Shown here in pieces: positions 18,330 to 62,157 of a stretch of 64,000 bases of DNA. A program made the translations under genes and the position numbers. The stretch covers positions 746,149-810,148 of the forward strand of contig JAEHCO010000001.1 in NCBI GenBank assembly GCA_020697715.1, given 5' to 3'. The DNA comes from Methanobacteriota archaeon (GTDB lineage Archaea; Thermoplasmatota; Thermoplasmata; SG8-5; JAGLSY01). Within the stretch, counting starts at the first letter, position 1. Every line of letters starts with the position of its first letter. The notes under the pieces were generated by a model, which was not told the DNA's origin, made no database searches, and saw nothing but the letters and a program-made list of their open reading frames with translations.

Positions 18330-18416
18330 TATATATTGTTGTAATACATGCGTATATTGATACAACGTCTGTTGTATAACTATAGACTCAGGGTGGGGGT
18401 CTTTGGAGGAATATTA

Positions 18417-20876
18417 ATGGAATTTGATAGGAAAGTGATTAGCATTTTACTAATCACTTCAATGATATTAGCTAGTGTCGCGATAGTTTCTGAGAACGTG
18501 AGTTCCATCGATGTAGGTGGTAAAACTGTCACGGATATTGCCTCCCTTCCAAATGGGGTGACCATCAATGATATCTCATGGATGGATGATGGCTCAATGG
18601 CATTGGCTGTTGGAGCCAATGAATCCGGTGGCTCGAATGCTTTCTGGTATTATCCAAATACCGATCAATGGGTGGCCATCACACCATATTGTGTCGAGGT
18701 GGTCATGGAATTGGTCCATACCCAGACAGCCACAGAAACTGGCCCCTATGCCCTTGCAGACTCGCCTGTTTACAATTACACTTTCTATGTTGATGATGGC
18801 AGTCTTAGTCAGATAGTGGAGGGCGTGGATTACACTTTTGACCCAGTTACGGGACACATAACAATGTTGGCAGGTATAGCTCCTGCTGCAGATATTTTAT
18901 GCTGGTACAATTACTCAGTAAGAGAATTGTTCGCAACTGAATATGATAAGTTCACTGGTAGCTTCGGTATTGTTGGATCATTTATTGATGGTATACAGTC
19001 CAGTGCATTGTACATAACTCCCGGATCCTCGGAAATGATGGAGATATCACATAATGGTGCATGGCCGACCCAGGAACTAAGAGGTATGGATGTGGATGAG
19101 TACGGCAATTTCCTAGCAGTAGGATCAAATGATCTGGTCTTATTCTACAGACTACTGGATGACACTTGGTATGCGGTTGCCGATAATGAAGGTGAGACTG
19201 GCTGGGATTACAATGATGTTAGCTATGAGCTGGAAAATCATAGATACTACCTTGTGGGTGGTAATGCCAGCGGCGGCGTGATCGCATACTGTGACGCTCT
19301 TGCTGATAATACGGCTATACCAGTGAAGCATCACAATTATGATTCTTTTGCCAATATGACCCAGAAGGCGATCATCAATTCCATCGAATGGAACAATGAT
19401 CCGAATAAGTTCGGCGGAAATCAATACGCTTTGTTAGTAGGTGGCTCGGATCTGGTAATGATCCAGCCAATCGATTCAGGATCGCCGATGATCGTTGGCC
19501 CCCAGATCCCGAACATGGTCTTCGAGGATGTTGGATTTGATGAATACTCATGGGCGGATGCGACACTTGTCGGATGGGATCAATCCACTTCCAAAGGTTA
19601 TATTCTTTATTTCACACCCGGGGAATCCAATATAAAGACACTACATTCTGACTTAAGCCAGAAGTTCTATTGTGTGGATTACCGACCACCGAACAGTCCG
19701 TCCTTTGGTTTTGTACTGGGAGCAACTGGAGCAATGAAGATCAATACCAATGCATTTGATATGACCACCAAGCTCTACGTGAACACCGATGTGCCTCATG
19801 TATTCGATATAGACATGTGGGATGCCAGTGATGCTGGTCAGGTCTCGGTGCTCAATACACAGGTCGATGTCAAGAACACATACACCTTTTTCACGGAGGT
19901 GAATTACACTATTGGAGGAGTGGATGAGTTCTGGGACAATAATGACAATGTCAGAGTCATTCTTTGGGCATGGCATGATGAGGGGCAGACAGATACCGAT
20001 TCAAATCCAGAAGGGACCTGGGCCACAGAAGATAATAGGACCCGGCAGTTCAGTGTCGCATGGGATGAGGGGACCACTCTTGTTCCAGGACAGGGATCAG
20101 CCAGTATGTTATATCCTGTTGGAAGCGCAGGAGAGGACGAGTTCAGGCTGGACAGCTACTGGGTCGATCCAACGGGATATGGTTTAGACAGTAGCACCTG
20201 GCGATTGTATTTCAATATAACTTTCGATAATCAAACATGGGCCGCGGATGGAAATGGCTTTGGAAATGGAGCATCATCCAATATTAATGACCCTGGCCAA
20301 TCATTGAACGATATAAATAGCTGGGATATGAGATTCCAGATATATGACCAGAATTTCGTAACAGCACTGAATGAGAGTTATGAGGAGTTCGGAATATTCA
20401 AGTTCACGAACATCAGTGTCAGTGGAAACCCAATGGGCAATGCACCTCCAGGAACCAATGATTCCGCTCTATCACCATTCTCCCAGATCACCTATGCCGC
20501 GAATCTGGATTATTATCTCAATGTATCCATAACCAATCTTTCCAAAGTAGGTGGCGGAGCAGAGATCGGAGCCAATAATATCCGTGTTGAGATGAATGAT
20601 CCGCAGGCCAATAGCACCAATACCCAGTTGAACGACACGTTCAGCTATTTCCCGGATGCGGACATTCCTCTTGGAATTTGGGGGAATGTATCACAACCTG
20701 TTTCTAATTGGGTCTTACCAGCGCCACTGAATGGAACAACAGCCAATGGTCCATTTGGTTCGGATTACAATGCTTACGGTGGAGCCACTGATCTGGAGTG
20801 GTATGCGACCGTTCCGGGGGCCACACTCGAAGGGATCTATGAGGCTGTTATAACGATCACGATAGGGTACTATTGA
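18417..20876 (+). CDS. Array protein A1: secreted beta-propeller scaffold with small (~75 aa) insert and conserved C-terminal domains
   Basis: GGAGG SD before ATG 18417; signal peptide; PHVFDIDMW...TYTFFTEVNY, EEFG, NAPPG motifs; ends GIYEAVITITIGYY. Confidence 0.85.
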   Translation: MEFDRKVISILLITSMILASVAIVSENVSSIDVGGKTVTDIASLPNGVTINDISWMDDGSMALAVGANESGGSNAFWYYPNTDQWVAITPYCVEVVMELVHTQTATETGPYALADSPVYNYTFYVDDGSLSQIVEGVDYTFDPVTGHITMLAGIAPAADILCWYNYSVRELFATEYDKFTGSFGIVGSFIDGIQSSALYITPGSSEMMEISHNGAWPTQELRGMDVDEYGNFLAVGSNDLVLFYRLLDDTWYAVADNEGETGWDYNDVSYELENHRYYLVGGNASGGVIAYCDALADNTAIPVKHHNYDSFANMTQKAIINSIEWNNDPNKFGGNQYALLVGGSDLVMIQPIDSGSPMIVGPQIPNMVFEDVGFDEYSWADATLVGWDQSTSKGYILYFTPGESNIKTLHSDLSQKFYCVDYRPPNSPSFGFVLGATGAMKINTNAFDMTTKLYVNTDVPHVFDIDMWDASDAGQVSVLNTQVDVKNTYTFFTEVNYTIGGVDEFWDNNDNVRVILWAWHDEGQTDTDSNPEGTWATEDNRTRQFSVAWDEGTTLVPGQGSASMLYPVGSAGEDEFRLDSYWVDPTGYGLDSSTWRLYFNITFDNQTWAADGNGFGNGASSNINDPGQSLNDINSWDMRFQIYDQNFVTALNESYEEFGIFKFTNISVSGNPMGNAPPGTNDSALSPFSQITYAANLDYYLNVSITNLSKVGGGAEIGANNIRVEMNDPQANSTNTQLNDTFSYFPDADIPLGIWGNVSQPVSNWVLPAPLNGTTANGPFGSDYNAYGGATDLEWYATVPGATLEGIYEAVITITIGYY

Positions 20877-20908
20877 TGGTCTGATAATAAGGCTGATCTC
20901 CAAAAAGG

Positions 20909-20935
20909 CACAATCGGATAATCTATCCGATTGTG
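20909..20935 (+). terminator. Hairpin after A1
   Basis: CACAATCGGATA-ATC-TATCCGATTGTG perfect 12-bp inverted repeat followed by a T/C-rich tract. Confidence 0.6.
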
Positions 20936-20982
20936 TTATCCTACTTTTCCCCATAATATATAATAGTTACCCAAATAGTATA

Positions 20983-20990
20983 TTTATATA
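20983..20990 (+). promoter_or_regulatory. Putative internal TATA box for A2 onward
   Basis: TTTATATA within the largest (222 nt) intergenic gap of the array. Confidence 0.4.
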
Positions 20991-21098
20991 AAGTAACATA
21001 CAAGCTTTATTCTCTAAGGGGGGTTCCGAAAGGGCTCTGCATGATCCGCATCTCTCAATTATGGGAGGGCGAATTCAATAATAGAGGGGACGAGGCCT

Positions 21099-24000
21099 AT
21101 GTTCAGAAAACGAGTTATAGCTTTGAGCATTGTGATGTTGATGATAGCCAGTGTATTCACAGGAATATCATTTCTAATCACAGCTGAAGATGTTGGAACG
21201 GATCCTATCGAGGATATATCAAGTGCTCCAGCAGGTGTCCAATTGAATGATATCGCATGGCATCCTGATGAGAATATTGCCGTTGCCGTTGGTAATGATT
21301 CGACCAATGGATACATTTACAGATATGAGCCAGATGCTGATAATTGGGCCAATCTCAGAAATTATGTGGGAGATACTTTCAAGGGCGTGACCAGAACCGA
21401 GCCTTGGACCTTCTTTGATGATGCAGAGTCTGATGCTGGATGGACAATAAATTCATGGAGGGGTAACTTGGACTGGGAAAGAAAGAATCCAACAGTCTTG
21501 CCAGTGCCAGGCTCTGGTATCTCTCATGACACTGCATATTCTGGTAATTCAGTATGGTGGTTTGGAAACACCACCACTGGGGATTACAATGATAATAATC
21601 AGATAGTCAGAGGTAGCATGATATCCCCTGTAAAACACATACCAAATATCTCGACCAATGCATACCTATCGTTCCAGCACTGGTTCGATGTTGAGTCCGG
21701 TGGAAGTTATGACTACAGTCATGTCTATATCAAGAACACTACCGACCCAGGATGGACAAATCTGTACACCTGGAACTCTGGATGGGTAAGCTCCAATGGA
21801 GGCGCTGGCACTCACTCGAAGATTTCCTGGACACAAGAGAGATATGATATATCTGACTGGATAGGAAATGATGTCCTTCTTAACTTCACATTTGATTCTG
21901 GGGGAGACGGATCAGCTAATAATTATGCTGGATGGCATATCGATGATATCCAGCTGGAATCCAATGGTATTTTCATGGCTGTGGGTAATCCTGGCGGGGG
22001 TTCTTTCTCCGCTTTCTATACGGATGGTTACAGTCCGATGACCAGTGTGGAAGACCTGGCTGGCTTTGATCTTTATGATGTAGCTGCCGGACCTATTGGG
22101 ACCGCTGTGGCTGTCGGAGCAGGCGGAGCTGCCCTTTACTGGGATGGTGAAGTTTGGCAAGGTCTAAGTGGCCCGGCTGGCACGGACACCCTGGCATCTG
22201 TGGATTGTAATGGCTCGCATTACTTCATTGTAGGCTATGACTCGGGTGACAATGGGATCGGCTTCTTCATAACGGCCAATGAGCTGGCCACAGGGAATTA
22301 TGACATGCACTCAATGCCTGGAGCCCCCACTTACAAGCTCAATAGTGTAAGTTGGTCCAATGATTGTCCGGCTGGCAGTTCGGATAATGGATTGGGAATA
22401 ATCGCCGGAGAAGGAAACATCCTCGGTCTGACCAATCCCGAGTTCTGGCGGCAGAAGGATCCATCAACGGTTCCCACTGGCAGAAGGAATCAGGCCATGT
22501 CCTGGGATGAAGATTACAATCAAATGATAATGTTCGGTGGAAGTAGTGGAGTTAACCTTGGCGATACCTGGGCATATGATATTGGCAATGATGAATGGAA
22601 TAACCTGAACCCAGGAGGCGCCCCATCTGCAAGAGAATACCCCAGGATGGTATACAGTCCAACTGACAATGTTCATATAATGTTCGGGGGCAATGATGGT
22701 GGTGGCTATGATGATGAGACCTGGGTGTACAATTATGCCACAAACTCCTGGACGAACAAGAATCCCAACCCCAGACCCCCTACAAGATCCGAGCACACTA
22801 TGGCCTATGACGAGGTCTATCAAAAGGTCATTCTCTTCGGTGGAAAGAATAATGGTGGAAACCTGGCAGATACATGGGCGTACGATTACCGCACCAACAC
22901 ATGGACCAATATGACCCCCACAATATCAGGAATTCCAAGTGCGAGGTTCCTGAGTGGAATGAGCTATGACGCAATGAACGAAAAGACCATAATGTTCAGT
23001 GGCTGGGGATCTTCAGGAGCCATCAGCGACACTTGGGCCTACGATTATCCCAGCAATACATGGACCGATATGAGTCCAGTACCATCCCCAACAGCGAGAG
23101 ACAGGCATGCCATGACCTTCGATAAGGCTATTGGCCGAAGTGTTGTCCATGCTGGTTGGACCGGAGCTAATGTAGACGATACATGGACATACGATTATGG
23201 GACCAATACCTGGGAGGAAATGACCACACCCACTCGTCCATCTTATAGGTTTGATATGGTAATGGCCTATGCCACACAAGGTGTGATCGTCATGTTCGGA
23301 GGGAACTATCCTGTATCCAATGATGAAACATGGCTATGCAGGCTGAATGTGAACCCATGGGGGGAACCTTCCAGTGTCACGAATGGTGAGAGCTTCACTG
23401 ACACTGCATGGGATACAGCTGGAACAACAGCTATCGTCGTTGGTCATAATACCATATCCGCGGTCCTTTATTCATATCAATCTGGGGATGAGGATGTGAC
23501 TAAATTACAGGATTTGAACAATGTACTGGCTGGCCACGAGCTTTATGGCGTCAGCTGGAGACCTCTGGACCATGGTGCGGAATATGCCATGGCCGTTGGA
23601 GCCAGTGCCTTCAAGCTATGGAGCAATGTCTTTGATGATGGTACCGAAATAACAGTGTCCACTGACAAGCCACACATTTTCCAGCATGGCCTATGGAAGA
23701 CCGCGGATGGTCTATATTCTGCTTCAAAATTGGATAGCCAGCTGGATGTCCGGACAACATACACTTTCTTCGCCGAGGTCAATTACACCATCGGCGACGT
23801 GGATGACCTTATGGATGCGGATGGGAATTCGCGGATCGAGGTAATGGCCTGGTATGATGAAGGGAACACAGGAACATCCAATCCTGAACCGTCATGGGCC
23901 TCTGTTGATAACAGGACCAGGCAATTCAGGCTCATGTGGTTCGAGCAGAATGGACCTGTACCTGCCACAGCCAGTATGCTTTATCCCATTGCCAGTCCAG

Positions 24001-24758
24001 GGATCGACGAGTTCCAATTGGACGGATGGTGGATGGATCCCATCGCCTATGGTGCTGATGGCAATACAAGGAGATTCTTCTTCAATGTCACACTCGGGCC
24101 ACAGACATGGGCAGCGGATGGTAATGGCTTCAGCAATGGCATAGGTGTGCCATCTCACGATAAGGGCGTGGCTCTCAATGATCCAGACAGCTGGGATTTC
24201 AGGGTTCGACTATACGACAATAACTTCGTCAATTCGGCAAATCTCTCATTTGGTGAGTTCGGGATCTTCAGATACACGAACATCACAGTAGCTGGCAACC
24301 CTGGCGGGAATGCACCGCCAGGAACTATGAACTCCGGACTGGGACCGCAGAGCCAGATCACATATTCATCCAATATTCCACATTATGTCAATGTCTCAGT
24401 GGGGGATCTGAACAGACAGGGTGGTGGCGGTAGTATTGCTGCTACGAACATCAATGTCAGTCTCCAGAATGATCTGGGAATTGGATTGAACCCATACACT
24501 GAGATCAATGATGATACTTGGCCCAATGGAAGGGCCTTTACAGGTGCTGGACTAGCCAATGATCGGTGTGTCTGGGGTAATAGAACCCAGCTCATAAAAT
24601 CCATGCCAGCGCCAAAGAACGGGACTACCTCCCATGGACCTTGGGGTTCTGATTTCAATAGCATGGGAGTGACGTACATCAACTGGTGGGCCAATGTGCC
24701 CGGAGCTACGCCTGAAGGTATCTACCAGGCGAGCGTGACATTTACAATAGAATATTAG
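21099..24758 (+). CDS. Array protein A2: scaffold with MAM/immune-inhibitor-like jelly-roll insert and 6-blade Kelch insert
   Basis: FFDDAE...LSFQHWFD.E...GWHIDDI; six PxxRxxxxMxYD...FGG...DTWxYD...W repeats; ends GIYQASVTFTIEY. Confidence 0.85.
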   Translation: MFRKRVIALSIVMLMIASVFTGISFLITAEDVGTDPIEDISSAPAGVQLNDIAWHPDENIAVAVGNDSTNGYIYRYEPDADNWANLRNYVGDTFKGVTRTEPWTFFDDAESDAGWTINSWRGNLDWERKNPTVLPVPGSGISHDTAYSGNSVWWFGNTTTGDYNDNNQIVRGSMISPVKHIPNISTNAYLSFQHWFDVESGGSYDYSHVYIKNTTDPGWTNLYTWNSGWVSSNGGAGTHSKISWTQERYDISDWIGNDVLLNFTFDSGGDGSANNYAGWHIDDIQLESNGIFMAVGNPGGGSFSAFYTDGYSPMTSVEDLAGFDLYDVAAGPIGTAVAVGAGGAALYWDGEVWQGLSGPAGTDTLASVDCNGSHYFIVGYDSGDNGIGFFITANELATGNYDMHSMPGAPTYKLNSVSWSNDCPAGSSDNGLGIIAGEGNILGLTNPEFWRQKDPSTVPTGRRNQAMSWDEDYNQMIMFGGSSGVNLGDTWAYDIGNDEWNNLNPGGAPSAREYPRMVYSPTDNVHIMFGGNDGGGYDDETWVYNYATNSWTNKNPNPRPPTRSEHTMAYDEVYQKVILFGGKNNGGNLADTWAYDYRTNTWTNMTPTISGIPSARFLSGMSYDAMNEKTIMFSGWGSSGAISDTWAYDYPSNTWTDMSPVPSPTARDRHAMTFDKAIGRSVVHAGWTGANVDDTWTYDYGTNTWEEMTTPTRPSYRFDMVMAYATQGVIVMFGGNYPVSNDETWLCRLNVNPWGEPSSVTNGESFTDTAWDTAGTTAIVVGHNTISAVLYSYQSGDEDVTKLQDLNNVLAGHELYGVSWRPLDHGAEYAMAVGASAFKLWSNVFDDGTEITVSTDKPHIFQHGLWKTADGLYSASKLDSQLDVRTTYTFFAEVNYTIGDVDDLMDADGNSRIEVMAWYDEGNTGTSNPEPSWASVDNRTRQFRLMWFEQNGPVPATASMLYPIASPGIDEFQLDGWWMDPIAYGADGNTRRFFFNVTLGPQTWAADGNGFSNGIGVPSHDKGVALNDPDSWDFRVRLYDNNFVNSANLSFGEFGIFRYTNITVAGNPGGNAPPGTMNSGLGPQSQITYSSNIPHYVNVSVGDLNRQGGGGSIAATNINVSLQNDLGIGLNPYTEINDDTWPNGRAFTGAGLANDRCVWGNRTQLIKSMPAPKNGTTSHGPWGSDFNSMGVTYINWWANVPGATPEGIYQASVTFTIEY

Positions 24759-24769
24759 GAGGCTGTAAT

Positions 24770-24841
24770 ATGAAAACCAACACAGAAAAACTGAGCAAGA
24801 ACTTGACGGCCTTCGAACAGAGAAGGGGTGATTCTCAATGA
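24770..24841 (+). CDS. Possible 23-aa bridging ORF between A2 and A3
   Basis: GGAGG SD then MKTNTEKLSKNLTAFEQRRGDSQ*; TGA overlaps the A3 ATG (ATGA). Confidence 0.3.
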   Translation: MKTNTEKLSKNLTAFEQRRGDSQ

Positions 24842-27800
24842 ATCAAAAAATGACCTCAATAGTGATAGTGTGTGCGATGCTGTTGATGGGAATAACCATC
24901 AACATAGACAGTGGCGCCCAAGGGGCCTTCGTGAACTACCAGTCCGTACCATGGGACAGTAACTTCACACCATTGGATTCCGCATGGGATCCAGCCGGAG
25001 ACAATTGTATCGTTGTAGGCAATGATACGTCAGGACTACAGTCAAGTGCCTGGCATTATTATGAGCCTACGGACACTTGGTCTCAGATATCTGAGGCCGG
25101 TGGTTATATGTCAACACCTGGCAATTATGCTGAGAATCAGAACTCTGGAATTTCTTATCCAACTATCCAGGGTGCTATCGACGCGGCCAATGAGGGTGAT
25201 ACCATCGAGGTATGGGCAGGTTCATATACTGAGAATATTGCCGTTGGCATTCCCCTTACCTTGGAGGGAAATGGAAGTTACAACACCGTTATTGACGGCG
25301 CTGGTGCAGGTAATGTCGTCACAATATCAGTAGATGGTGTTGAGTTCAGTGGTTTCACGGTCACTAATTCCGGAGCAGGGAATTCTGGGATATTGCTGTT
25401 CAATTCGGACAATAGCCAGATACATAACAATACTGCTGAGGGAAATGGTTATGGGATACGCCTTGAGGGTTCATCCAACAATATCATTAGGGATAATGAT
25501 GTGGAGAACAATGATGTTGGAATGATAACCACTGACAGTCCAGAGATAAAGAAGATGGTCGGCATAACAGGTTATGGGGGTATGGGCTATGGTACTATGT
25601 TCGACATGGACCCATCTGGAGATAATTATGAAGTTGTACGTTCTTTCACCCCTGCATATGAAGATGGATACAGTCCGCAATTTGGGAAATTGACACAGGA
25701 TATCTTTGATCCCAGTATCCTGTTCGGTATGACGGCAAATGGTGGAACATATAATGAGGGGGTCATTTACAAGGTTCGCACCGATGGATCTGATTATGAG
25801 ATCCTACATGAGTTCAATGGGGGCACGACAGATGGAGGACGTCCATATGATGCCACCCTCCTTCAGATAGGCTCCACTCTTTATGGAATGACCTATGATG
25901 GAGGGATTTCTGATGCTGGAGTAATATTCTCGATCGAAAGAGATGGTACTGGTTTTGACATATTGCATGAATTCTCTACAGGGGCTGGTGGAAATAGTCC
26001 CCGAGGCAGTTTGACATATGATGGCATCAGGCTATACGGAATGACGTATTATGGAGGGGCTGTCTTCAATTATGGTGTTATCTTCTCGATGAACTTGGAT
26101 GGAAGTGCATATACCGTCCTGCGCAGTTTTTCAGCTCCAGATGGAGAATATCCATACGGTAGTTTGATACTGGATATGACTACCGGAACCTCCTTGTTCG
26201 GCATGGCCAGAGTAGGGGGTAGTGGCTATGGGACTATCTTCAGGATCAGTACAGATGGCAGTAGCTTCAATGTCCTGCACACTTTCACAGCACTATCAAC
26301 AGACGGACGCTATCCATATGGTTCTCTGATCCAGGATGGGCTGACCCTTTATGGAATGACGTACCAGGGTGGCAATGCTCTTGGTAATGATGGGTGTGTT
26401 TTTAAGATCCAAACAGATGGTAGTGGATTCACCCTCTTGCACAGCTTTTCAACCTCGGGAGGAGGCTACTATCCATATGGTGATCTGGTGCAAAGCGGCG
26501 GCATGCTTTACGGTATGACGCGCTACGCCACAGGAGGGACTGGAATGATATTTGGAGTAAGCACTGATGGATTAACATACAACACACTGCATACCTTCAC
26601 GAATTCACCAGATGGAGCTTACCCATATGGTGGTCTAATACTGGATGGGGCAACCCTTTACGGAGCAACAGGCAATGGAGGCCTGAACTACGGAGCACTG
26701 TTCAAGATAAACACGGACAGCAGTGGCTATTCTATAATTCATAATTTCGATGGTGTCGAGCATGAAGGAACAAAGCCATCTGGTCGCATGGTGCAAGATG
26801 GGAACACCTTGTATGGAGTTACTGAAGATGGTGGAGCTTATGGTTATGGAACCTTCTACAAGATAAACACGGACTACACGGGTTATACCATCCTGCATAA
26901 TTTCGATTATAATACAGAGGGTTATCCATATGCCAGTAGTGTCATTCAGGTAGGCTCGACATTCTACGGAATGCTTTATGAAGGGAACACGGATGATCAA
27001 GGAAGCCTTTACAAGATAAATGCAGATGGCACTGGATTCACTATCCTTCGTGATTTCGAGGATTGGGATGGAAGCTACCCATCCGGTTATTTAGCCTACA
27101 GCGACCCATACCTTTACGGCATGACAGAGAGCGGAGGCATGTGGGGCGAAGGGGTCTTGTACAGATTACGAACAGATGGGACGGATTTCTCTGTAATGGC
27201 TGAATTCGAATATGGTTCAGGATCACCGGCCTATCCATATTTCAATGGATTGGTCGATGGTGGATCGGTCATGTATGGATTTTCTCAAAATGGAGGGATC
27301 TTCAGCAGGGGATGTATATTCAGCATTGATAAGACAACATGGTTCATGGATGTTCTTTACAGCTTCACTGGCGATGTTGATGGAAGCTATCCTCATGGAG
27401 TTCCGATATTGGATGGCGGATACTTGTACGGGACAGCATCCAGTGATGGAGATGTTGTTGCGAATGATGGTACAATATTCAGAATAAACACCGATGGTAC
27501 CAATTTCGTGGTCCTTCATACTTTCCTTCCTGTTGATGGATCGAACCCATACCAAGGGCTGGCACTAGATGGCAATGAGCTCTATGGGATGACCGGTAAT
27601 GGAGGAGCATTCAATGATGGTACAATATTCAAAATGGATAAGGATACAACTACATTCACGGTCCTTCATGAGTTTTCGAGCAATCCAGATGGAAGAAATC
27701 CTAATTATAATGATATCACTGTGGTCGTAATTCCAGCAGCTCAATCCATGGGCAACCTCATCTACCACAATAATTTCATTGATAATACCCAGCAGGCACA

Positions 27801-34082: not shown

Positions 34083-34085
34083 TTG

Positions 34086-39470: not shown

Positions 39471-39489
39471 AAAAGATGGAGGAATATAG

Positions 39490-41715: not shown

Positions 41716-41721
41716 GGGGAT

Positions 41722-44418: not shown

Positions 44419-44419
44419 A

Positions 44420-49060: not shown

Positions 49061-49071
49061 GAGGAGATGGA

Positions 49072-51753: not shown

Positions 51754-51767
51754 GAGGGGGTGAAAGA

Positions 51768-54458: not shown

Positions 54459-54477
54459 GGTGGATGATGGAGGTGGA

Positions 54478-57117
54478 ATGATGAGTGGAAATAGAGAAAT
54501 GAAAAAGATACTGGCCATGGCTTTAGTTAGCATCATGGTCTGCGCAAGCATAGTGATAGTTTTACCGAATAACACGGTAATGGCAGAGGATTCTGCAAAA
54601 CCTTTTGTGGATTTGAACACGGGCTATCCCCTTCCGAGTTTTAATTTGGACCAAGAACAGAGTATGGAAGGAACGATCGTTACTATGTCTGGGTTCTGGA
54701 TGGCCCAAACTTTCACGGCAGGAATAACAGAGAATTTAGCAATAGCTAGTATACATTTTGCCTCATGGCCTGATGTCGAAGATATATCTGTGTACATCTA
54801 TGATACAAGCGGCGGTCTGCCAAATACCGTAATGGCTACAGAAACATTAGCAGGACCAACTGTTCTGGACAATGAATGGTTCAATGTTACCTTTGACCCG
54901 CAGCCATCATTGATAATAGGTGTGCAGTATGCAGTGGTATTCAAGAGTTCTGGCTCCGGCGGAAGTCCGGATTTGATGAACATGGATGTTTATGCAGGTG
55001 GGAGTGCCTACCAGAGCTTTGACGGAAATACATGGATGGACGTTAACAACCCTCTTTGGGACTTCACATTCAGAACATATTACGCTTCATCTGAATCCGG
55101 CTTGACCAATATTGCCTGGCATGAATCTGGGGACTATGCATTGGCCGTCTCAGGAGCAGATGATGGGAACATATACAGATATCAAAGATCTAACAACACC
55201 TGGTACTTGGCCTTCAATACTAATCCTAGTGGAACCAATAATGATATCATTTATGATGCAACTTGGGAGAATTTCTTCATTGTCGGAGCTATAGGTGGAT
55301 TCACGCATTCATACACTTGGAACGAGACATTTGGTCTCGTGGATCTGGGATCTACATTTTCTGATGGGCCGTACGAAGGTGTTGTGGCTTGTTCAGCTCC
55401 CTATTATTTCCTGGCAGTAGGGCATGATCTTGCTAATGTGGGCAAATTCGCATGGTACAATAAATCAAGTGCCAGTTATGAGGAATATTTCACCCCCTCT
55501 GATGAATGGCTGTACGATGTGACCTATTCTCCAACCGAAGGGAATTACTATGCAGTTGGAGACCTCGGTGGAACTGGTATTGTTTATCAATTTGATTATC
55601 CTGGCGACTCAACCGGATTACGGATTAGCGATGCCTGGAATGATACTTTCAGCCCTCTGTATTCCGTGGATTGGAGCCCCTTAGGTGGTGGGAATAATTA
55701 TGGACTCATGGCCGGATCAAATAGTCAAGGCAATGGCAATGTTCACAGGCTCAATCCTGGACCATCATATGATTCGATAATGAGTACCAGCGATACAATC
55801 TGGGATATTGATTGGCATCCTAATGGAGAAATGGCCATTCTAGTGGGTGAGACCAATGTTGGAAACGGTGCAATATATAGCCATTACCCTCAAAACCTAC
55901 AAAGTAAGTTAAGCAATGATCCAGATTATCCTTCACCCTTTTATGGTATTGCGATGAAAGGTTATTCCAGCCCCAGCTCGGGATTGATAATCGGAAATTC
56001 TGGCTCAGTAGGGTTTTACCCGTCTGCCATTGATTCAGGAACTACGATAACCGTGAACGCGGCCTTCCCTCACAACTTCGACATAGACATGTGGAAGACC
56101 AGTGACGGGATCGGAGGAAGCTCCAAGCTCAATACACAGGTCGATGTGGAGGAGACATACACCTTCATGGCCGAGGTCAATTACTCTGTCAGTGGCACTG
56201 ACCAATTCTATGCTGATGGTGTAAATGATGTGAGGATCGAGCTGTCGGCCTTCTTCGATGAGGGAGCCACACCGGGAGTGTTCCCAGCAACGGATGACCA
56301 GCACAGGACAAGAGCCTTTGTCGCTCTCTGGGAAGAAGGAAATGTGCCTTTCACGGATACGGCCAGCATGCAATATCCTATCGGTAGTCCCGGAACAGAT
56401 GAGTTCACCCTGGACAGCTTCTGGTTGGATTCTTCAGCACCTGGAGATCACTATTACATTTACATCAACATAACCTTTGGACCCCAAACATGGGCGGCCA
56501 GTGGTCCCTTTGGCGGAGCTTCTACAGATATCAATGACGATGTCCAATCATTGGATGATTCTAATACCTGGGACTTCGAGATGAGGATATATGACTCTAA
56601 TTATGGTGGAGCAACCAATTCCACATATGAGGAATTCGGCATTTTCCAGCACACGAACATAACCGTATCTGGAAATCCTGGCGGCAATGCGCCACCAGGG
56701 TCAAATGCGCAGTTGGGACCGAACAGCCAGATCGCAGTTTCTTCCAATATCGATTATTACGTCAATGTCTCGATCCCGGATCTGGCCAAAGTTGGTGGAG
56801 GGCTGCCAATACTGGCAACCAATGTGGCAGTGAACATAACAAGCCCATTTGCCAACAATACGAATTCGATGATAAATGGAACTGCAATGAACTTCCCTGG
56901 AGCCAATCAGACATTGAGCATATGGGGCAACACGAGCCAGGCCTTTGGAGACTGGGTTGTTGCAGCACCATTGAACAGTACGACGGCTCATGGATCGCAA
57001 GGAGCGGACTTCCAGAGCATTGGAACGACCGACTTAGAATGGTGGATCGATGTGCCAGGCGGTACAGCTGAAGGCGTGTACCAGGCATCTGTGACATTCA
57101 GGATAGGGTACTACTAG
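54478..57117 (+). CDS. Array protein A11: scaffold with ~155-aa N-proximal insert
   Basis: GGAGGTG SD then ATG 54478 (alternatives 54481, 54499); GYP[...AQTFTAG...DFTFRTY]..LTNIAW; ends GVYQASVTFRIGYY. Confidence 0.85.
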   Translation: MMSGNREMKKILAMALVSIMVCASIVIVLPNNTVMAEDSAKPFVDLNTGYPLPSFNLDQEQSMEGTIVTMSGFWMAQTFTAGITENLAIASIHFASWPDVEDISVYIYDTSGGLPNTVMATETLAGPTVLDNEWFNVTFDPQPSLIIGVQYAVVFKSSGSGGSPDLMNMDVYAGGSAYQSFDGNTWMDVNNPLWDFTFRTYYASSESGLTNIAWHESGDYALAVSGADDGNIYRYQRSNNTWYLAFNTNPSGTNNDIIYDATWENFFIVGAIGGFTHSYTWNETFGLVDLGSTFSDGPYEGVVACSAPYYFLAVGHDLANVGKFAWYNKSSASYEEYFTPSDEWLYDVTYSPTEGNYYAVGDLGGTGIVYQFDYPGDSTGLRISDAWNDTFSPLYSVDWSPLGGGNNYGLMAGSNSQGNGNVHRLNPGPSYDSIMSTSDTIWDIDWHPNGEMAILVGETNVGNGAIYSHYPQNLQSKLSNDPDYPSPFYGIAMKGYSSPSSGLIIGNSGSVGFYPSAIDSGTTITVNAAFPHNFDIDMWKTSDGIGGSSKLNTQVDVEETYTFMAEVNYSVSGTDQFYADGVNDVRIELSAFFDEGATPGVFPATDDQHRTRAFVALWEEGNVPFTDTASMQYPIGSPGTDEFTLDSFWLDSSAPGDHYYIYINITFGPQTWAASGPFGGASTDINDDVQSLDDSNTWDFEMRIYDSNYGGATNSTYEEFGIFQHTNITVSGNPGGNAPPGSNAQLGPNSQIAVSSNIDYYVNVSIPDLAKVGGGLPILATNVAVNITSPFANNTNSMINGTAMNFPGANQTLSIWGNTSQAFGDWVVAAPLNSTTAHGSQGADFQSIGTTDLEWWIDVPGGTAEGVYQASVTFRIGYY
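56761..57075 (+). repeat. 315-bp near-identical copy 2 (A11 3' end)
   Basis: Matches 54102-54416 (offset 2659). Confidence 0.9.
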
Positions 57118-57172
57118 GAGATATACAAATCCAAAAAATCATGAATAATGAGGTGAAAAAACAAAAAAGGAG

Positions 57173-59848
57173 ATGAGAAAAATGATAGAAATGAAAAAGA
57201 TATTGGCCATAGTGATCACGATTGCTATGGCAAGTGCTAGTTTAGTGATAGTTCTACCGAACAACACGGTAGTTGCTGAGGATTCTGCAAGGCCACTTGC
57301 TGGTCTGTCCGATGGATTGCCAGCAACAATGAATGTGGTGGATCAAAGAGATGAGGGCATAGGGTCATTCTTTACTGTAGATGATACTAACCAATTAGCC
57401 CAGAGGTTCACATGCGGTGTGGATGGAGACCTTACAAGTATAGACCTACACGTGTCTGGATCCTTTGATAATGGTGGCAACTTGTTTTATCAGATCCAGG
57501 ATGGTAGCGGTCCTTTACCTGGAACTCCACTCGATGTGGCTGAAATGATACCGATCAGTTTTCTAGGGGGAGGATGGAATAATCTTGCATTACCACCAAC
57601 AGATCTGTCTGAAGGTATGACATATGCTATTGTGATCTGGGCCTCCTCTACTAATTCGGTCGACATATCGATCGATACAGGAGCTCTATACGGTGGCTTG
57701 GGTTCCATGTCTATGAACGGTGGAGCATCCTTCAGTCCACTGGGAGGGCAGGATGTTACTTTCAGAACCTACATGGAGATCCCTTTCACTATGAGCAAGG
57801 TGGCATGGCATTCAAGTGGAGACTATGCTCTAGGTATAGCAAGTGGCACAGACCATGTTTACAAATATACACGAAATTCCATGGCCTGGGCCAGTGAGTA
57901 CGACCTTGCTAACGATATGATCTTCAATGATATAGAATACAGTGAGCATTTTGGTCTTTTCTACATCGTGGGAGATGATATTGGAAATTCATGGGCCAAA
58001 GCCTGGAGCTATTATGAGCCAACACAGAGCTTATTGGACCTTAATGCACCTCAACTTGCCTCAACAGACTTCAACTGCCTTTGTCTGGCAGATGAGGGTG
58101 GTACAACTGATTACGCCTTCTTGGCCTTCGGATTTGACTATGGTCAATGGTACGATGAGGGCAATGATATCTGGGTCGAAGTGACCGGAGGATTGAGCGC
58201 AGCTGTGGATGTGATGGATGTAACCTGGGACCATGGATATGGCTCTATATCATATTGGGCTGTTGGAGATAGTGCTGGTTCTGGATACTTGTATTATTTC
58301 ACCGGCGCGGGTGATACTGCAGCAGCACAATACAATCCTTCAGTATGGGGTGCAGTTGGATCATTCAGTGGTATTGAATGGCAGCCTGCTGGAGCCTCGG
58401 ATCATGCCGTGATAGTCGGTGAGAATTTAGGAGATGGAAATGTCTGGAGCTGGGATGGTACGACTGCAGAAGCTTTGTTAAACACCACTGATACCTATAC
58501 TGATGTTTCCTGGCACCCTGATGGAAGCATGGCCATGGCCGTTGGTTACACAGCATCAGATGATGGTGTGATCTACCACTATATTCCAGATAATGGCGCA
58601 ATGATCAAAATGAGCACAGATGGTGATCATGGAAAGCTATATGGTGTTGATGTCAAAGGCTGGACCAGTCCAAGCTCTGGATTGATAGTTGGATCCAGCG
58701 GAGCAGTTGGTTCTTACCTTTCAGCATCAGACGGAGATACGACATTGACCGTCAATGCCGCTTTCCCGCACATATACGATATCGACATGTGGAAAACCAG
58801 CGACGCTGGTGAGACATCCACACTTAACTCAAGAGTGGATGTTGAAGATACCTACACCTTCTACACCGAAGTGAACTACACGATAGGAGGTACAGATCAG
58901 TTTTTCGATGGTACCAATAACACCTTCGTGGACCTTACAGCGTGGTTCGATGATGGAAATGATGCAACAAGCATGACGCCATCAGCAAGTGACGATTCCC
59001 ACAGAACTAGGAAGTTCGTGGCCAGGCTTTACGAGACAACCAGCTTGGTCGCAAGCGGTGTTACAGGATCGGTCATCTATCCAGACACGACAACCAATGA
59101 AATCTTGTTTGATAGTGTCGGATGCAGCGGACCATACGGTGCTGATGACAGGTACGGTGTTTGGATCAATGTAACATTCGGAGCTCAGATGAGAGCTGGC
59201 GATGGCCAGAATTATGCAAATGGAGCTGCAGGTAGTATATTCGACAGCAACCAGGCATTCGATGATGATGACAGCTGGAACTTCCAGATGCAGATATTCG
59301 ATAATGACTTCCCTGGAGCGACGAACACCACATACGAGGAGTTCGGAATATTCATGGCCACTAACATCACAGTGTCCAATAATCCAAGTGTCAATGCTCC
59401 TCCAGGAAGTGTGAGCCAGGCATTTGATTCCAACAGTCTGATCACTTATTCGGCAAATATTCCATACCACGTGAATGTGTCAATTGAGAGATTGAACTTG
59501 ACAACCGATGATACCAAATTCATACCCGCCAGTAATGTCAATGCAAGTCTTGTCGACATGTACCCAGTTGGATTCGATCTTGAACCATACACTGAGATAA
59601 ATTCAACGTGGGGAGCTGCTGGAAGACCTTTCGCAGCACCCGGCGCAGAGCGTATGGTATGGGGCAATACAAGCCAGGCAACCGAGCTGGTACCAGCTCC
59701 AAACAATGGAACTGCTGCACATGGTCCTGTATACTCGAACTTTGACGGATATGGAGCCACGGAGGTCGCATGGTGGATAAGCGTGCCAGGAGCTACATCT
59801 GAAGGTATTTATCAGGCGTCGATAACCTTCAAGATCGGGTACTATTGA
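57173..59848 (+). CDS. Array protein A12: scaffold with ~155-aa N-proximal insert
   Basis: GLP[...AQRFTCG.DG.L...DVTFRTY]..MSKVAW; ends GIYQASITFKIGYY; exact start uncertain (several in-frame ATGs). Confidence 0.85.
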   Translation: MRKMIEMKKILAIVITIAMASASLVIVLPNNTVVAEDSARPLAGLSDGLPATMNVVDQRDEGIGSFFTVDDTNQLAQRFTCGVDGDLTSIDLHVSGSFDNGGNLFYQIQDGSGPLPGTPLDVAEMIPISFLGGGWNNLALPPTDLSEGMTYAIVIWASSTNSVDISIDTGALYGGLGSMSMNGGASFSPLGGQDVTFRTYMEIPFTMSKVAWHSSGDYALGIASGTDHVYKYTRNSMAWASEYDLANDMIFNDIEYSEHFGLFYIVGDDIGNSWAKAWSYYEPTQSLLDLNAPQLASTDFNCLCLADEGGTTDYAFLAFGFDYGQWYDEGNDIWVEVTGGLSAAVDVMDVTWDHGYGSISYWAVGDSAGSGYLYYFTGAGDTAAAQYNPSVWGAVGSFSGIEWQPAGASDHAVIVGENLGDGNVWSWDGTTAEALLNTTDTYTDVSWHPDGSMAMAVGYTASDDGVIYHYIPDNGAMIKMSTDGDHGKLYGVDVKGWTSPSSGLIVGSSGAVGSYLSASDGDTTLTVNAAFPHIYDIDMWKTSDAGETSTLNSRVDVEDTYTFYTEVNYTIGGTDQFFDGTNNTFVDLTAWFDDGNDATSMTPSASDDSHRTRKFVARLYETTSLVASGVTGSVIYPDTTTNEILFDSVGCSGPYGADDRYGVWINVTFGAQMRAGDGQNYANGAAGSIFDSNQAFDDDDSWNFQMQIFDNDFPGATNTTYEEFGIFMATNITVSNNPSVNAPPGSVSQAFDSNSLITYSANIPYHVNVSIERLNLTTDDTKFIPASNVNASLVDMYPVGFDLEPYTEINSTWGAAGRPFAAPGAERMVWGNTSQATELVPAPNNGTAAHGPVYSNFDGYGATEVAWWISVPGATSEGIYQASITFKIGYY
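58741..59845 (+). repeat. ~1.1-kb highly similar copy 1 (A12 3' region)
   Basis: Colinear with 61050-62154 (offset 2309); includes a 128-bp exact match 59465-59592 = 61774-61901. Confidence 0.85.
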
Positions 59849-59931
59849 ATGATATGAGATAAAATTCATGAAATCAAGAAAAAATGAAAAAATGAGGAAA
59901 GGAGGAAAAATGTAAAAAAGGAGATGAGAAA

Positions 59932-62157
59932 ATGAACAAAATAAACAAAATACTGGCCATGGCGGTAGTAATAGCCATGGCATGCGCTAGTATTATAATC
60001 GTGTCGCCGAACAATACGGTGATGGCAGAGGATTCAGCGAAGCCTTTAGCAGAGTTGAATGCGGGATATCCGGCAGGCATAGATAAAGTTGCCTGGCACT
60101 CGGATGGAAGCTTTGCACTTGGTATACAGAGTGGTACAGAACACATTTACAAGTACACAAGACAGACAATGAGCTGGGCCAGTGATTATAACCTTCCCGT
60201 TGGCGATACCTTCATTGATATCAAGTACAGTGAGTTCTTCGATATGTTCTATATTGTTGGAACGCAAAGTGGCCAGCAAGAAGCATGGAGCTATGATTAC
60301 AGCATCCAGAATTTGCTTGACCTGAACTCACCCAAGACAACCATGGGAGTCTATAATGGACTATGCCTGGCTGATGAAGGTGGAACACAACCCTATGCTT
60401 TCCTTGCAGTGGGCTATGCTGATACAAGCAAAGGATGTGCAGCATGGTTCGATGAAGCGGTTGATACTTGGACCGATGTGACCACTGGATTGACTTTGAA
60501 CCACGAACTTTATGATGTAACATGGGACCATGGCTTTACTGCAAATCCATATTGGATCGTCGGAGAGGATATGGGCACGGGGGCTGGAGTTATCTATTTC
60601 ATGAACAGTCCGGGTAATAACAAGGCCAACATCTTTGACACATCTGGCTGGGGTGTTACACCCGGTGCACTGAATGCCATTGACTGGAGGCCTTCAGGCG
60701 GAGCAGACCATGCTATAATGGCTGGAGGCAATTACGGTAACGGAAATGTCTGGCTTTTTGATGGTTTCAATGGAGAAGCTATACTCGATAACACAGATTC
60801 CTACACAGACGCATGCTGGCACCCTGATGGGGGCATGGCCATGGTTGTTGGCTACAATGTTGCTACTGATGGGATAATTCAGCATTATATCCCGGACAAC
60901 GAAGATACCCTCACGAAGATGAGCACAGATGGTGATTATGGACCATTCTATGGCGTTGATGTAAAAGCCTGGTCGAGTCCAAGTTCTGGTTTGATAGTCG
61001 GAGCTACTGGTGCAGTTGGATCATATCTCTCAGCATCTGATGGGAGCACGACATTGACAGTCAATGCCGCTTTCCCGCACATATACGATATAGACATGTG
61101 GAAGACCAGCGATGCTGGTGAAACCTCTACACTAAATGCACGTGTAGATGTTGAAGAGACTTACACCTTCTACACCGAGGTGAACTACACGATCGGTGGA
61201 ACAGATATGTTATTCGATGGTATCAATAACACCTTTGTGGACCTGACAGCGTGGTTCGATGATGGAAATGATGCTACAAGTATGACTCCATCAGCAAGTG
61301 ATGATTCGCACAGAACTAGAAAATTCGTGGCAAGATTCTACGAAACGACCAGTCTGGTTGCAAGTGGTGCAACCGGAGAGATAATATACCCAGATTCAAC
61401 AACCAATGAAATCTTGTTTGATAGTGTCGGATGCAGCGGACCATACGGTGCTGATGACAGGTACGGTGTTTGGATCAATGTCACCTTCGGCCCTCAGATG
61501 AGAGCTGGCGATGGCCAGAATTTTGCAAATGGAGCTGCAGGTAGTATATTCGACAGCAATCAGGCATTCGATGATGATGACAGCTGGAACTTCCAGATGG
61601 AGGTATATGATAATGATTATCCCGGAGCGACAAACACCACATACGAGGAGTTCGGAATATTCATGGCCACGAACATCACGGTGTCCAATAATCCAAGTGT
61701 CAATGCCCCTCCAGGAAGTGTGAGCCAGGCATTTGATTCCAACAGTTTGATCACGTATTCGGCCAATATTCCGTACCACGTGAATGTGTCAATTGAGAGA
61801 TTGAACTTGACAACCGATGATACCAAATTCATACCCGCCAGTAATGTCAATGCAAGTCTTGTCGACATGTACCCAGTTGGATTCGATCTTGAACCATACA
61901 CAGAAATAAATGCAACATGGGGAGCTGCTGGAAGACCATTTGCAGCAGCCAATACAGAGCGTATGGTATGGGGCAATACAAGCCAGGCAACCGAGCTGGT
62001 ACCAGCTCCGAACAATGGAACTGCCGCACATGGTCCTGTATACTCGAACTTTAACGGATATGGAGCAACTGAGGTCGCATGGTGGATCAATGTACCAGGA
62101 GCGACAGCTGAGGGAATATACCAGGCCACGATCACTTTCAAGATCGGGTACTATTAG
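59932..62157 (+). CDS. Array protein A13: insert-free scaffold (741 aa)
   Basis: AGYP-AGIDKVAW contiguous where A7 and A9-A12 have inserts; seven recognisable blades; ends GIYQATITFKIGYY. Confidence 0.87.
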   Translation: MNKINKILAMAVVIAMACASIIIVSPNNTVMAEDSAKPLAELNAGYPAGIDKVAWHSDGSFALGIQSGTEHIYKYTRQTMSWASDYNLPVGDTFIDIKYSEFFDMFYIVGTQSGQQEAWSYDYSIQNLLDLNSPKTTMGVYNGLCLADEGGTQPYAFLAVGYADTSKGCAAWFDEAVDTWTDVTTGLTLNHELYDVTWDHGFTANPYWIVGEDMGTGAGVIYFMNSPGNNKANIFDTSGWGVTPGALNAIDWRPSGGADHAIMAGGNYGNGNVWLFDGFNGEAILDNTDSYTDACWHPDGGMAMVVGYNVATDGIIQHYIPDNEDTLTKMSTDGDYGPFYGVDVKAWSSPSSGLIVGATGAVGSYLSASDGSTTLTVNAAFPHIYDIDMWKTSDAGETSTLNARVDVEETYTFYTEVNYTIGGTDMLFDGINNTFVDLTAWFDDGNDATSMTPSASDDSHRTRKFVARFYETTSLVASGATGEIIYPDSTTNEILFDSVGCSGPYGADDRYGVWINVTFGPQMRAGDGQNFANGAAGSIFDSNQAFDDDDSWNFQMEVYDNDYPGATNTTYEEFGIFMATNITVSNNPSVNAPPGSVSQAFDSNSLITYSANIPYHVNVSIERLNLTTDDTKFIPASNVNASLVDMYPVGFDLEPYTEINATWGAAGRPFAAANTERMVWGNTSQATELVPAPNNGTAAHGPVYSNFNGYGATEVAWWINVPGATAEGIYQATITFKIGYY
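61050..62154 (+). repeat. ~1.1-kb highly similar copy 2 (A13 3' region)
   Basis: Colinear with 58741-59845. Confidence 0.85.

Follow-up and report, generated by a model that had tools for sequence, protein, structure and literature searches.

A tandem array of archaeal exported proteins with unrelated domains inserted at a few loops of a common seven-bladed propeller frame

The 64,000-nucleotide stretch of DNA analysed here (the window, positions 746149-810148 of contig C11, JAEHCO010000001.1, in the 2.12 Mb, 94% complete genome of a Thermoplasmata archaeon) carries on its + strand, between positions 18348 and 62157, 13 tandem, co-oriented and tightly packed paralogous open reading frames (ORFs), A1-A13, which encode proteins of 741-1795 amino acids (aa) and are all homologous over a common core. 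These proteins differ through entire folded domains that occupy a small number of surface loops in this core, mostly around blade 1 and strand 2A of a beta-propeller, with a few at later blade junctions or in one loop of the C-terminal domain, and the slots concerned have been filled, emptied and refilled independently of the descent of the frame (or chassis) carrying them. We consider it likely that the array encodes a lineage-specific exported family built on one rigid frame, with its cargo in the loops, which would act as a co-expressed extracellular binding repertoire. Among the routes by which proteins evolve, domain insertion is known but in the minority, and its instances are usually isolated; in this one family it occurs in series, with defined slots, unrelated cargo, nesting, loss and replacement, within a 44-kb locus and its sister-species ortholog. 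The named homologs of the array proteins are annotated only as 'hypothetical protein [Thermoplasmata archaeon]', and no description of this protein family was found in open-access full texts and bioRxiv.

From N- to C-terminus the frame comprises a signal peptide of the Sec type, a short conserved strand, a 7-bladed beta-propeller and an all-beta C-terminal domain (C-domain) of ~350 aa, the propeller and C-domain core of the 13 paralogs having no match in Pfam or NCBIfam. The AlphaFold model of the insert-free member A6, obtained from a 35-sequence alignment (mean predicted local distance difference test score, pLDDT, 84; predicted template modelling score, pTM, 0.52), displays an N-terminal hydrophobic helix at residues 2-20, a 7-bladed propeller at 33-375 and an all-beta C-domain at 390-741, with a low-confidence linker at 375-386. 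In VIA-align the propeller superposes on solved 7-bladed propellers with Z scores of 27.8-30.3 and about 280-300 aligned residues, the root-mean-square deviation (rmsd) being about 2.5-3 Å for most among 50 listed matches, while the top Foldseek matches to the A6 model are the integrin alphaX and alphaM ectodomains (E 5.7e-14, TMq 0.33) and BT4663 propellers. Across the 13 proteins scanned, the Pfam WD40 family (PF00400) matches only A11, at 22.4 bits and under the cut-off of 27, and FG-GAP (PF01839) gives zero matches. Judged by the predicted models of A6 and A2, the chassis propeller is 7-bladed, of WD40-like architecture and superposable on solved propellers.

Mapped with a hidden Markov model (HMM) representing the insert-free form (33 rows, with A6 residues as match states), the large length differences among the 13 paralogs all fall at four loops, S1-S4. 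Four defined insertion sites had been proposed in a first-pass annotation of the window, and the HMM, the break points of BLASTP segments and the loops of the A6 model agree in confirming them. The first, S1, lies before blade 1 (chassis position ~36-47 in A6 numbering), between the N-terminal strand 35-36 and strand 1A (46-53), and holds an extra 141-160 aa in A7, A9, A10, A11 and A12. S2 is located at the blade 1/2 junction (~84-96), between strands 1D (83-86) and 2A (97-104), and is occupied in A1 and A3; S3 follows strand 2A (~101-107), between its end at 104 and strand 2B (109-114), and is occupied in A2, A4, A5 and A8; and S4, between blades 5 and 6 (~279-297), separates strands 5C (274-278) and 6A (298-304) and accommodates the Kelch propeller of A2 (insert lengths and coordinates are given in Table 1). 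S2 and S3 are the two ends of one 8-residue strand, 2A, and the site used by A4 is ambiguous between them because a 2A-like stretch also occurs downstream of its insert, the assignment to S3 coming from the HMM alone. A6 and A13 fit the chassis HMM end to end with zero insert. Segment mapping by HMM and BLAST was preferred to global pairwise alignment, which with cheap gap extension had dispersed the inserts. In the S1 proteins the leader preceding the cargo is conserved with the matching stretch of A13, and this would fit a closing strand which the propeller requires. In propellers generally, the D-A and B-C loops lie on one face and the A-B and C-D loops on the opposite face, such that S1, S2, S4 and the 3D/4A site of a relative, P0136, are probably on one face and S3 on the other. 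Since S3 is an A-B loop and the other slots are at blade junctions, the slots probably do not all cluster on one propeller face.

The annotation had also taken the segments flanking the inserts to reconstitute one propeller, and in the AlphaFold model of A2 (signal peptide removed, 1190 aa, 31-sequence alignment, pLDDT 86, pTM 0.60) they do. Over the range 4-815 this model aligns with two single 7-bladed propellers, 3odt_B (Z 28.1, rmsd 2.7 Å, 280 of 296 residues) and 8esq_p (Z 28.2, rmsd 2.6 Å, 273 of 290 residues), and the uninterrupted A6 matches 3odt_B no better (Z 27.9, 282 residues aligned). Because the MAM domain (184 aa) and the Kelch domain (~300 aa) both fall within this range, the residues that align would be drawn from three separated pieces of the chassis (the aligner outputs ranges only). 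In the DSSP strand assignment the MAM domain is preceded by 2A and followed by 2B, and the Kelch insert is a separate propeller of the 6-bladed fold at model positions 417-722 (9mey_B, Z 40.2, rmsd 1.6 Å, 293 residues). Similarly, in the HMM the chassis segments flanking each insert follow one another in order without overlap and together constitute exactly one chassis. The interrupted propeller of A2 is thus modelled as one 7-bladed propeller, an architecture of the integrin alpha-I type. The same results bear on the notion that gene calling or assembly produced the pattern artificially, or that it is a set of ordinary terminal read-through fusions in which the N-segments are remnants of other genes. 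The gene starts were set mechanically at the first ATG, GTG or TTG, four of them being TTG and some overlapping the preceding gene, which speaks for such an origin; yet no reading frame is interrupted, a second genome repeats 12 of the architectures in the same order and with near-identical lengths, N-segment and remainder add up to exactly one chassis, and the single propeller of the A2 model already contradicts it, leaving this explanation with a negligible probability.

At an E-value limit of 0.001, a profile of the 13 paralogs retrieved 521 cluster representatives (clustered at 50% identity; 155 of them at E up to 1e-30), and in the best 150 of the 521, which were examined, the shared part is the C-domain. 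A colinear chain from signal peptide to C-terminus could be followed in 70 rows (window proteins included, five self-duplicates removed); A2 and some relatives are absent from these because Kelch cross-matches broke their chains, A2 having been mapped separately. The 70 rows comprise 4 propeller-less forms (386-490 aa), 30 insert-free forms (709-747 aa) and 36 forms with a total of 39 inserts of at least 40 aa. Of these 39, 35 begin within positions 35-110 of the chassis, a span of roughly one-tenth of its length (8 at 35-44, 14 at 77-93 and 13 at 101-110; two have wide bounds), the other four starting at positions 177, 277, 699 and 704. The same slots hence recur across the sampled family beyond chance, the longest insert having about 1070 aa among the window proteins and about 1415 aa family-wide. 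An additional slot in the C-domain (chassis ~685-709, with an insert of 106-125 aa) is used by P0116, P0119, P0113, P0133, P0141, P0093 and P0146 and by zero window proteins. A6 and A13 had been singled out as two empty chassis of the same 741-aa length: both are indeed insert-free, but they form no special pair, the empty chassis being the commonest form (30 of 70 rows), and their equal length is a coincidence, given the 709-747 aa range of insert-free rows and the indels by which the two differ.

An extension of more than 30 aa at either terminus is found in none of the 66 propeller-bearing complete rows, all cargo being internal to the propeller or to one loop of the C-domain. Nine propeller-less relatives, one of them in the host genome, are organised differently, beginning with the C-domain and continuing into extensions of 102-2048 aa, which in four of the nine contain Pfam domains such as NosD, PQQ, PKD, LamG, DUF11 and Big_5. 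The earlier proposal that diversification proceeds by insertion rather than terminal fusion is consequently upheld for propeller-bearing members and fails for the propeller-less ones. Its corollary, that both termini are constrained, is supported only in part: it agrees with the unextended propeller-bearing rows, but the C-terminus is not blocked as such, because the nine propeller-less relatives carry their extensions there. The C-domain is the only element universal to the family; its profile matches 26 of 41 related genomes (host included), with 13-20 matches in each of the four genomes of the genus (host again included); of 200 other genomes sampled evenly across the phylum it matches 12, which belong without exception to one taxonomic family, mostly as ORFs of 375-410 aa.

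The cargo belongs to several recognisable families. In A2 these are Kelch (PF24681, PF13415 and related; 195.3 bits, cut-off 50) and an InhA-like MAM domain (PF20773; 35.9-40 bits, cut-off 26.9); in A5 and A8, Laminin_G_3 (PF13385; 199.7 and 232.8 bits respectively, cut-off 27.6, three stretches each); in A3, a NosD-type right-handed beta-helix (PF05048, PF13229; 47.9 bits against a cut-off of 23.6, with a C-terminal NosD piece at 32.6 bits) and GloVer repeats (TIGR03803; 421.9 bits against a cut-off of 44, 14 stretches); and in A4, DNRLRE (NF033679; 98 bits, cut-off 34, two stretches), while relatives also carry GLUG and FG-GAP. The MAM domain of A5 and A8, where Pfam gives no MAM match, is apparent from BLAST homology to that of A2 on both flanks of a nested insert. 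Residues 1-121 of A2 pair with 2-118 of A5, and 106-498 with 1008-1383; A8 has the same split-MAM pattern (28-141 and 788-1126), as do 7 family representatives. It follows from these split matches that the LamG_3 arrays lie inside the MAM domain, after its first strand. Likewise, the NosD profile of A3 is split, with profile positions 57-159 at residues 132-234, positions 155-212 at residues 966-1015 and the GloVer repeats between them; P0050, P0054 and P0066 have an unsplit NosD domain in the same slot. Comparison of these sequences indicates that inserts are themselves nested, LamG arrays within MAM and GloVer repeats within the NosD helix. MAM and Kelch occur in all combinations (Kelch only in P0025, MAM only in A5 and A8, both in A2), and all S1 cargos are mutually homologous.

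The history of the slots was compared with that of the frame in a quick tree built by maximum likelihood from 91 chassis cores (columns 116-740, LG+G4, support from the Shimodaira-Hasegawa-like approximate likelihood ratio test, SH-aLRT, only; midpoint root for drawing), for which hmmalign, having pushed whole N-terminal parts into the flank, supplied solely the core columns. On this tree at least 20 changes occur among the empty, S1, S2 and S3 states, and the closely related chassis of A3 and A4 carry their inserts in S2 and S3 respectively. A6 lies within an all-empty clade, the sister of which is a small-S2 group containing A1. A13 groups with A12 and the A12 ortholog (SH-aLRT 100) inside an 11-row clade with 7 S1 rows, in which P0021 and P0033 are further empties; being nested in an S1-bearing clade, A13 has probably lost its insert secondarily. 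In this closest filled/empty pair, A12 and A13, DNA identity on either side of S1 is about 69-71%, too high a divergence for judging microhomology at the junction. The three empties of this clade, together with the homology of all S1 cargos, which suggests one gain and several losses, would also suit a history dominated by loss, in which the ancestor carried inserts and the present variety, empties included, arose mainly by precise domain deletion. We regard such a history as unlikely, because one and the same slot holds unrelated cargo (in S2 the 72-aa domain of A1, NosD and others; in S3 MAM, DNRLRE and 310-610-aa domains of unknown kind), an insert within an insert presupposes gains, insert-free forms occur throughout the tree, and another family of the phylum, the one detected in the phylum sample, has propeller-less forms about 380-410 aa long.

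The uncoupling of cargo from chassis can be followed between the host and a same-genus genome (G003, C11:423500-476000), in which an array with the same order for A1-A12 and near-identical lengths is followed by LonB (96% identical). A13 has no ortholog in this second array, where the 11th position is taken by a duplicate that resembles A12 and carries related cargo (0.56 identity), and that is not orthologous to A11. Over all pairs of the A1-A12 arrays identity amounts to 0.61 for cargo, 0.75 for the propeller and 0.82 for the C-domain, with a very uneven spread: the chassis and cargo identities are 0.81 and 0.30 for A9, 0.83 and 0.32 for A12, 0.72 and 0.87 for A7, and 0.85 and 0.81 for A10. 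In sliding windows, identity falls in a step at the borders of the slots. The cargo of A9 resembles cargo carried by unrelated chassis more than it does that of its ortholog (P0028, 0.43 for cargo and 0.41 for chassis; P0131, 51% over 126 aa by BLAST). In A3, counting four-fold sites beneath conserved residues, 54 of 193 agree in the cargo versus 131 of 196 after it (Fisher p 1e-14), and 14 of 47 in the non-repeat NosD part versus 16 of 26 in the N-segment. Between these two congeneric genomes the cargo turns over independently of the chassis, and the pattern is better fitted by replacement of slot content through recombination than by fast point evolution alone. A diversity-generating retroelement was considered as a cause and rejected, the scanned window ORFs having no reverse-transcriptase family match and the divergence spanning whole domains.

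Two further observations concern the frame itself. Between A3 and its G003 ortholog, four-fold sites are identical at 96 of 123 positions in the C-domain (28812-29898) versus 35 of 73 in the rest of the propeller, a difference implying that the chassis is itself mosaic. In addition, 300-nucleotide (nt) stretches of the C-domain show raised similarity in neighbouring genes, with 86% DNA identity in A10/A11 (53952-54251 versus 56611-56910) and 83% in A12/A13 (58607-58906 versus 60916-61215), far above the rest of the genes, which suggests gene conversion within the array.

As to function, MAM, ConA-like LamG, Kelch, the NosD-type beta-helix, DNRLRE, GloVer, GLUG and FG-GAP belong to kinds of domain whose usual targets are carbohydrates or surfaces. 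Asp and Glu are two to five times as frequent as Lys and Arg, which makes the proteins strongly acidic, and in 11 of the 13 N-x-S/T sequons are at least as frequent as expected, with conserved sites. The genes from A2 through A13 are separated by anything from a 20-nt overlap to an 83-nt gap, A1 and A2 being 222 nt apart. Taken together, binding-type cargo, acidity, sequons and packed genes point to a co-expressed extracellular set binding polymers, particles or other cells, the role of which is probably the display of glycan- or particle-binding modules. In this scheme the 13 genes would be co-transcribed, as their tight packing suggests, the propeller would serve as a display platform for the binding modules, and the C-domain might provide a common base attaching or assembling the proteins at the cell surface, with new specificities arising by recombination that swaps slot contents between conserved flanks.

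None of the searches made with the C-domain identified it. In Foldseek searches of PDB and BFVD and in VIA-align against 48,161 chains, its listings were filled with propeller matches; a profile search of PDB sequences returned chance-level matches only (the best, topoisomerase II, at E 0.034); 15 C-domains gave zero Pfam matches at E up to 5; and two language-model searches matched only unnamed archaeal clusters. The WxL cell-wall-binding domain (PF13731), the nearest named cluster at 0.75-0.76, was rejected as its identity, this value being below the counting level and a Pfam match being absent. C-domain profile positions 28-230 and 234-384 are found separately in relatives, and these partial matches, together with the strand pattern, suggest that the domain consists of two beta-sandwich halves. 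All of A1-A13 end in a conserved beta-strand, without a hydrophobic tail.

Several points weigh against a displayed binding repertoire built by loop insertion. The C-domain lacks a recognisable relative of known role, such that its function as base or anchor is a guess, and in six of the 13 proteins (A6, A13, A12, A1, A4 and A3), scanned with NCBIfam models up to an E of 0.01, no PGF-CTERM signal, membrane anchor or other surface anchor was found, although hmmscan can miss short signals. NosD beta-helix and Kelch are among those cargo families that also occur in enzymes. The short strand preceding the S1 cargo has a pLDDT of only about 54 in A6 (residues 31-40), and owing to this low confidence S1 could alternatively represent a fusion placed immediately after a conserved leader, and not a loop insertion. 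The rows of the family sample are mutually related, so that the counts of inserts and extensions given above are of non-independent events. The repeat arrays of A3 and A8 can misalign and thereby inflate apparent divergence, and the four-fold-site identities of the other genes are small counts (5 of 18 for A12; 9 of 19 for A9, without contrast). Finally, the cargo of A2, A4, A7 and A10 is as conserved as the chassis, and turnover is therefore episodic.

The invariant acidic and aromatic residues of the C-domain, retained across 35 diverged sequences, raise the alternative that the chassis is an enzyme, the C-domain or the propeller being catalytic (for example glycan-degrading) and the inserts serving as substrate-targeting modules. 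Sialidases with propeller insertions are indeed present among the structural matches (2bzd_A and 1eut for A6, 1w0o_A for A2), and a beta-sheet domain is inserted in the propellers of NanI and NanJ in the part of PMC11525138 consulted. However, searches of Pfam, NCBIfam and PDB sequences gave zero enzyme-family matches, and the propeller likeness is generic, with 7 blades of the WD40 type against 6 in sialidases; we accordingly hold an enzymatic chassis to be unlikely. More speculative is an elaboration of the display reading, to which we attach a low probability, in which the 13 co-transcribed proteins would be joined by the C-domain into a mixed surface coat or fibre, the slots acting as sockets exchangeable by recombination. 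If true, a fixed lattice would be re-equipped with binding domains by cassette swapping between conserved flanks, combining ligand variation at the level of domains with an undescribed archaeal envelope-assembly domain.

Comparison with known systems places the family between several precedents. The integrin alpha-I domain is inserted between blades 2 and 3 and, in the portion of PMC10659397 consulted, has a single origin; the same portion documents the further likenesses of a 7-bladed propeller followed by beta-sandwich domains, a ligand-binding domain in an inter-blade loop, and paralogs both with and without the insert. Whereas in integrins, on this source, one slot holds one cargo type of one origin, the array family has at least four slots, unrelated cargo, nesting and turnover; it is archaeal, without a transmembrane tail or known partner subunit, and the 13 scanned proteins have neither an FG-GAP match nor a vWFA domain, such that the likeness is architectural only. 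The GH33 sialidases (NanI and NanJ of Clostridium perfringens, and those of Vibrio cholerae and Micromonospora) resemble the array proteins as secreted propellers with an internal beta-sheet or lectin module and beta-sandwich modules, the propeller insert being present in some paralogs and absent in others (PMC11525138, in the part consulted). They differ in having 6 blades and a defined active site, where the array family has 7 blades and no enzyme-family match, and in the array family the inserts are much larger and the conserved element is the undescribed C-domain. Modular archaeal and bacterial adhesins evolving by terminal shuffling draw on the same domain pool (LamG, NosD beta-helix, PKD, DUF11, Big_5, Kelch), and the propeller-less relatives P0095, P0047 and P0135 are built in this way, with domains after the C-domain; in propeller-bearing members, by contrast, the cargo is never terminal among the complete rows. 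The principle of domain insertion being already known, what is new here is the family itself, its several slots with unrelated cargo, their nesting and a turnover independent of the chassis. For protein engineering this offers a natural map of permissive propeller sites, and for evolutionary biology a system for dating the gain, loss and exchange of inserted domains, while the C-domain emerges as a widespread and undescribed element at the base of many surface proteins in uncultured Thermoplasmata, the envelopes of which are poorly known.

Table 1. Genes of the array and their inserts, in window coordinates (nt).
Gene	Coordinates	Strand	Length (aa)	Slot	Insert coordinates	Insert
A1	18348..20876	+	842	S2	18690-18926 (residues ~115-193)	72 aa, no known family
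A2	21099..24758	+	1219	S3	21405-21956 (residues 103-286)	184 aa, InhA-like MAM
A2	same gene	+		S4	22434-23351 (residues ~446-751)	6-bladed Kelch propeller
A3	24838..29898	+	1686	S2	25102-27960	953 aa, NosD-type beta-helix
A3	insert interior	+			about 25558-27684	14 GloVer repeats splitting the NosD beta-helix
A4	29895..34082	+	1395	S3 by HMM, S2 possible	30204-32219	673 aa, two DNRLRE domains
A5	34083..39470	+	1795	S3	34362-37583	1074 aa, MAM split after its first strand
A5	MAM interior	+			34437-37103	about 890 aa: LamG_3 domains, DUF2341 and more
A6	39490..41715	+	741			insert-free chassis
A7	41722..44418	+	898	S1	41854-42306	151 aa
A8	44399..49060	+	1553	S3	44759-47218	820 aa, MAM split
A8	MAM interior	+			44822-46759	about 645 aa of LamG_3 domains
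A9	49072..51753	+	893	S1	49213-49659	149 aa
A10	51750..54458	+	902	S1	51885-52388	160-168 aa
A11	54445..57117	+	890	S1	54649-55071	141 aa
A12	57173..59848	+	891	S1	57335-57769	145 aa
A13	59932..62157	+	741			insert-free, S1 subfamily; 75% identical to A12 chassis

Directly upstream of the array and in divergent orientation (15363-18131, minus strand) lies the gene for a 922-aa exported protein with two lamin-tail (LTD) domains, two PLD-like domains, one PKD domain and a C-terminal hydrophobic tail, while downstream the array is followed by the gene for an archaeal LonB. An unrelated second surface protein of propeller type, a 445-aa FG-GAP repeat protein, is encoded near the array at 8019-9356 on the minus strand. 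Two extra family members are present in the host genome outside the array, both on the minus strand of their contigs: one, in a 749-aa frame ~5.5 kb past the end of the window (C11:815707-816888), and the other in a 933-aa frame (C22:73500-75188), in which a full C-domain is followed by a second copy of its first half.

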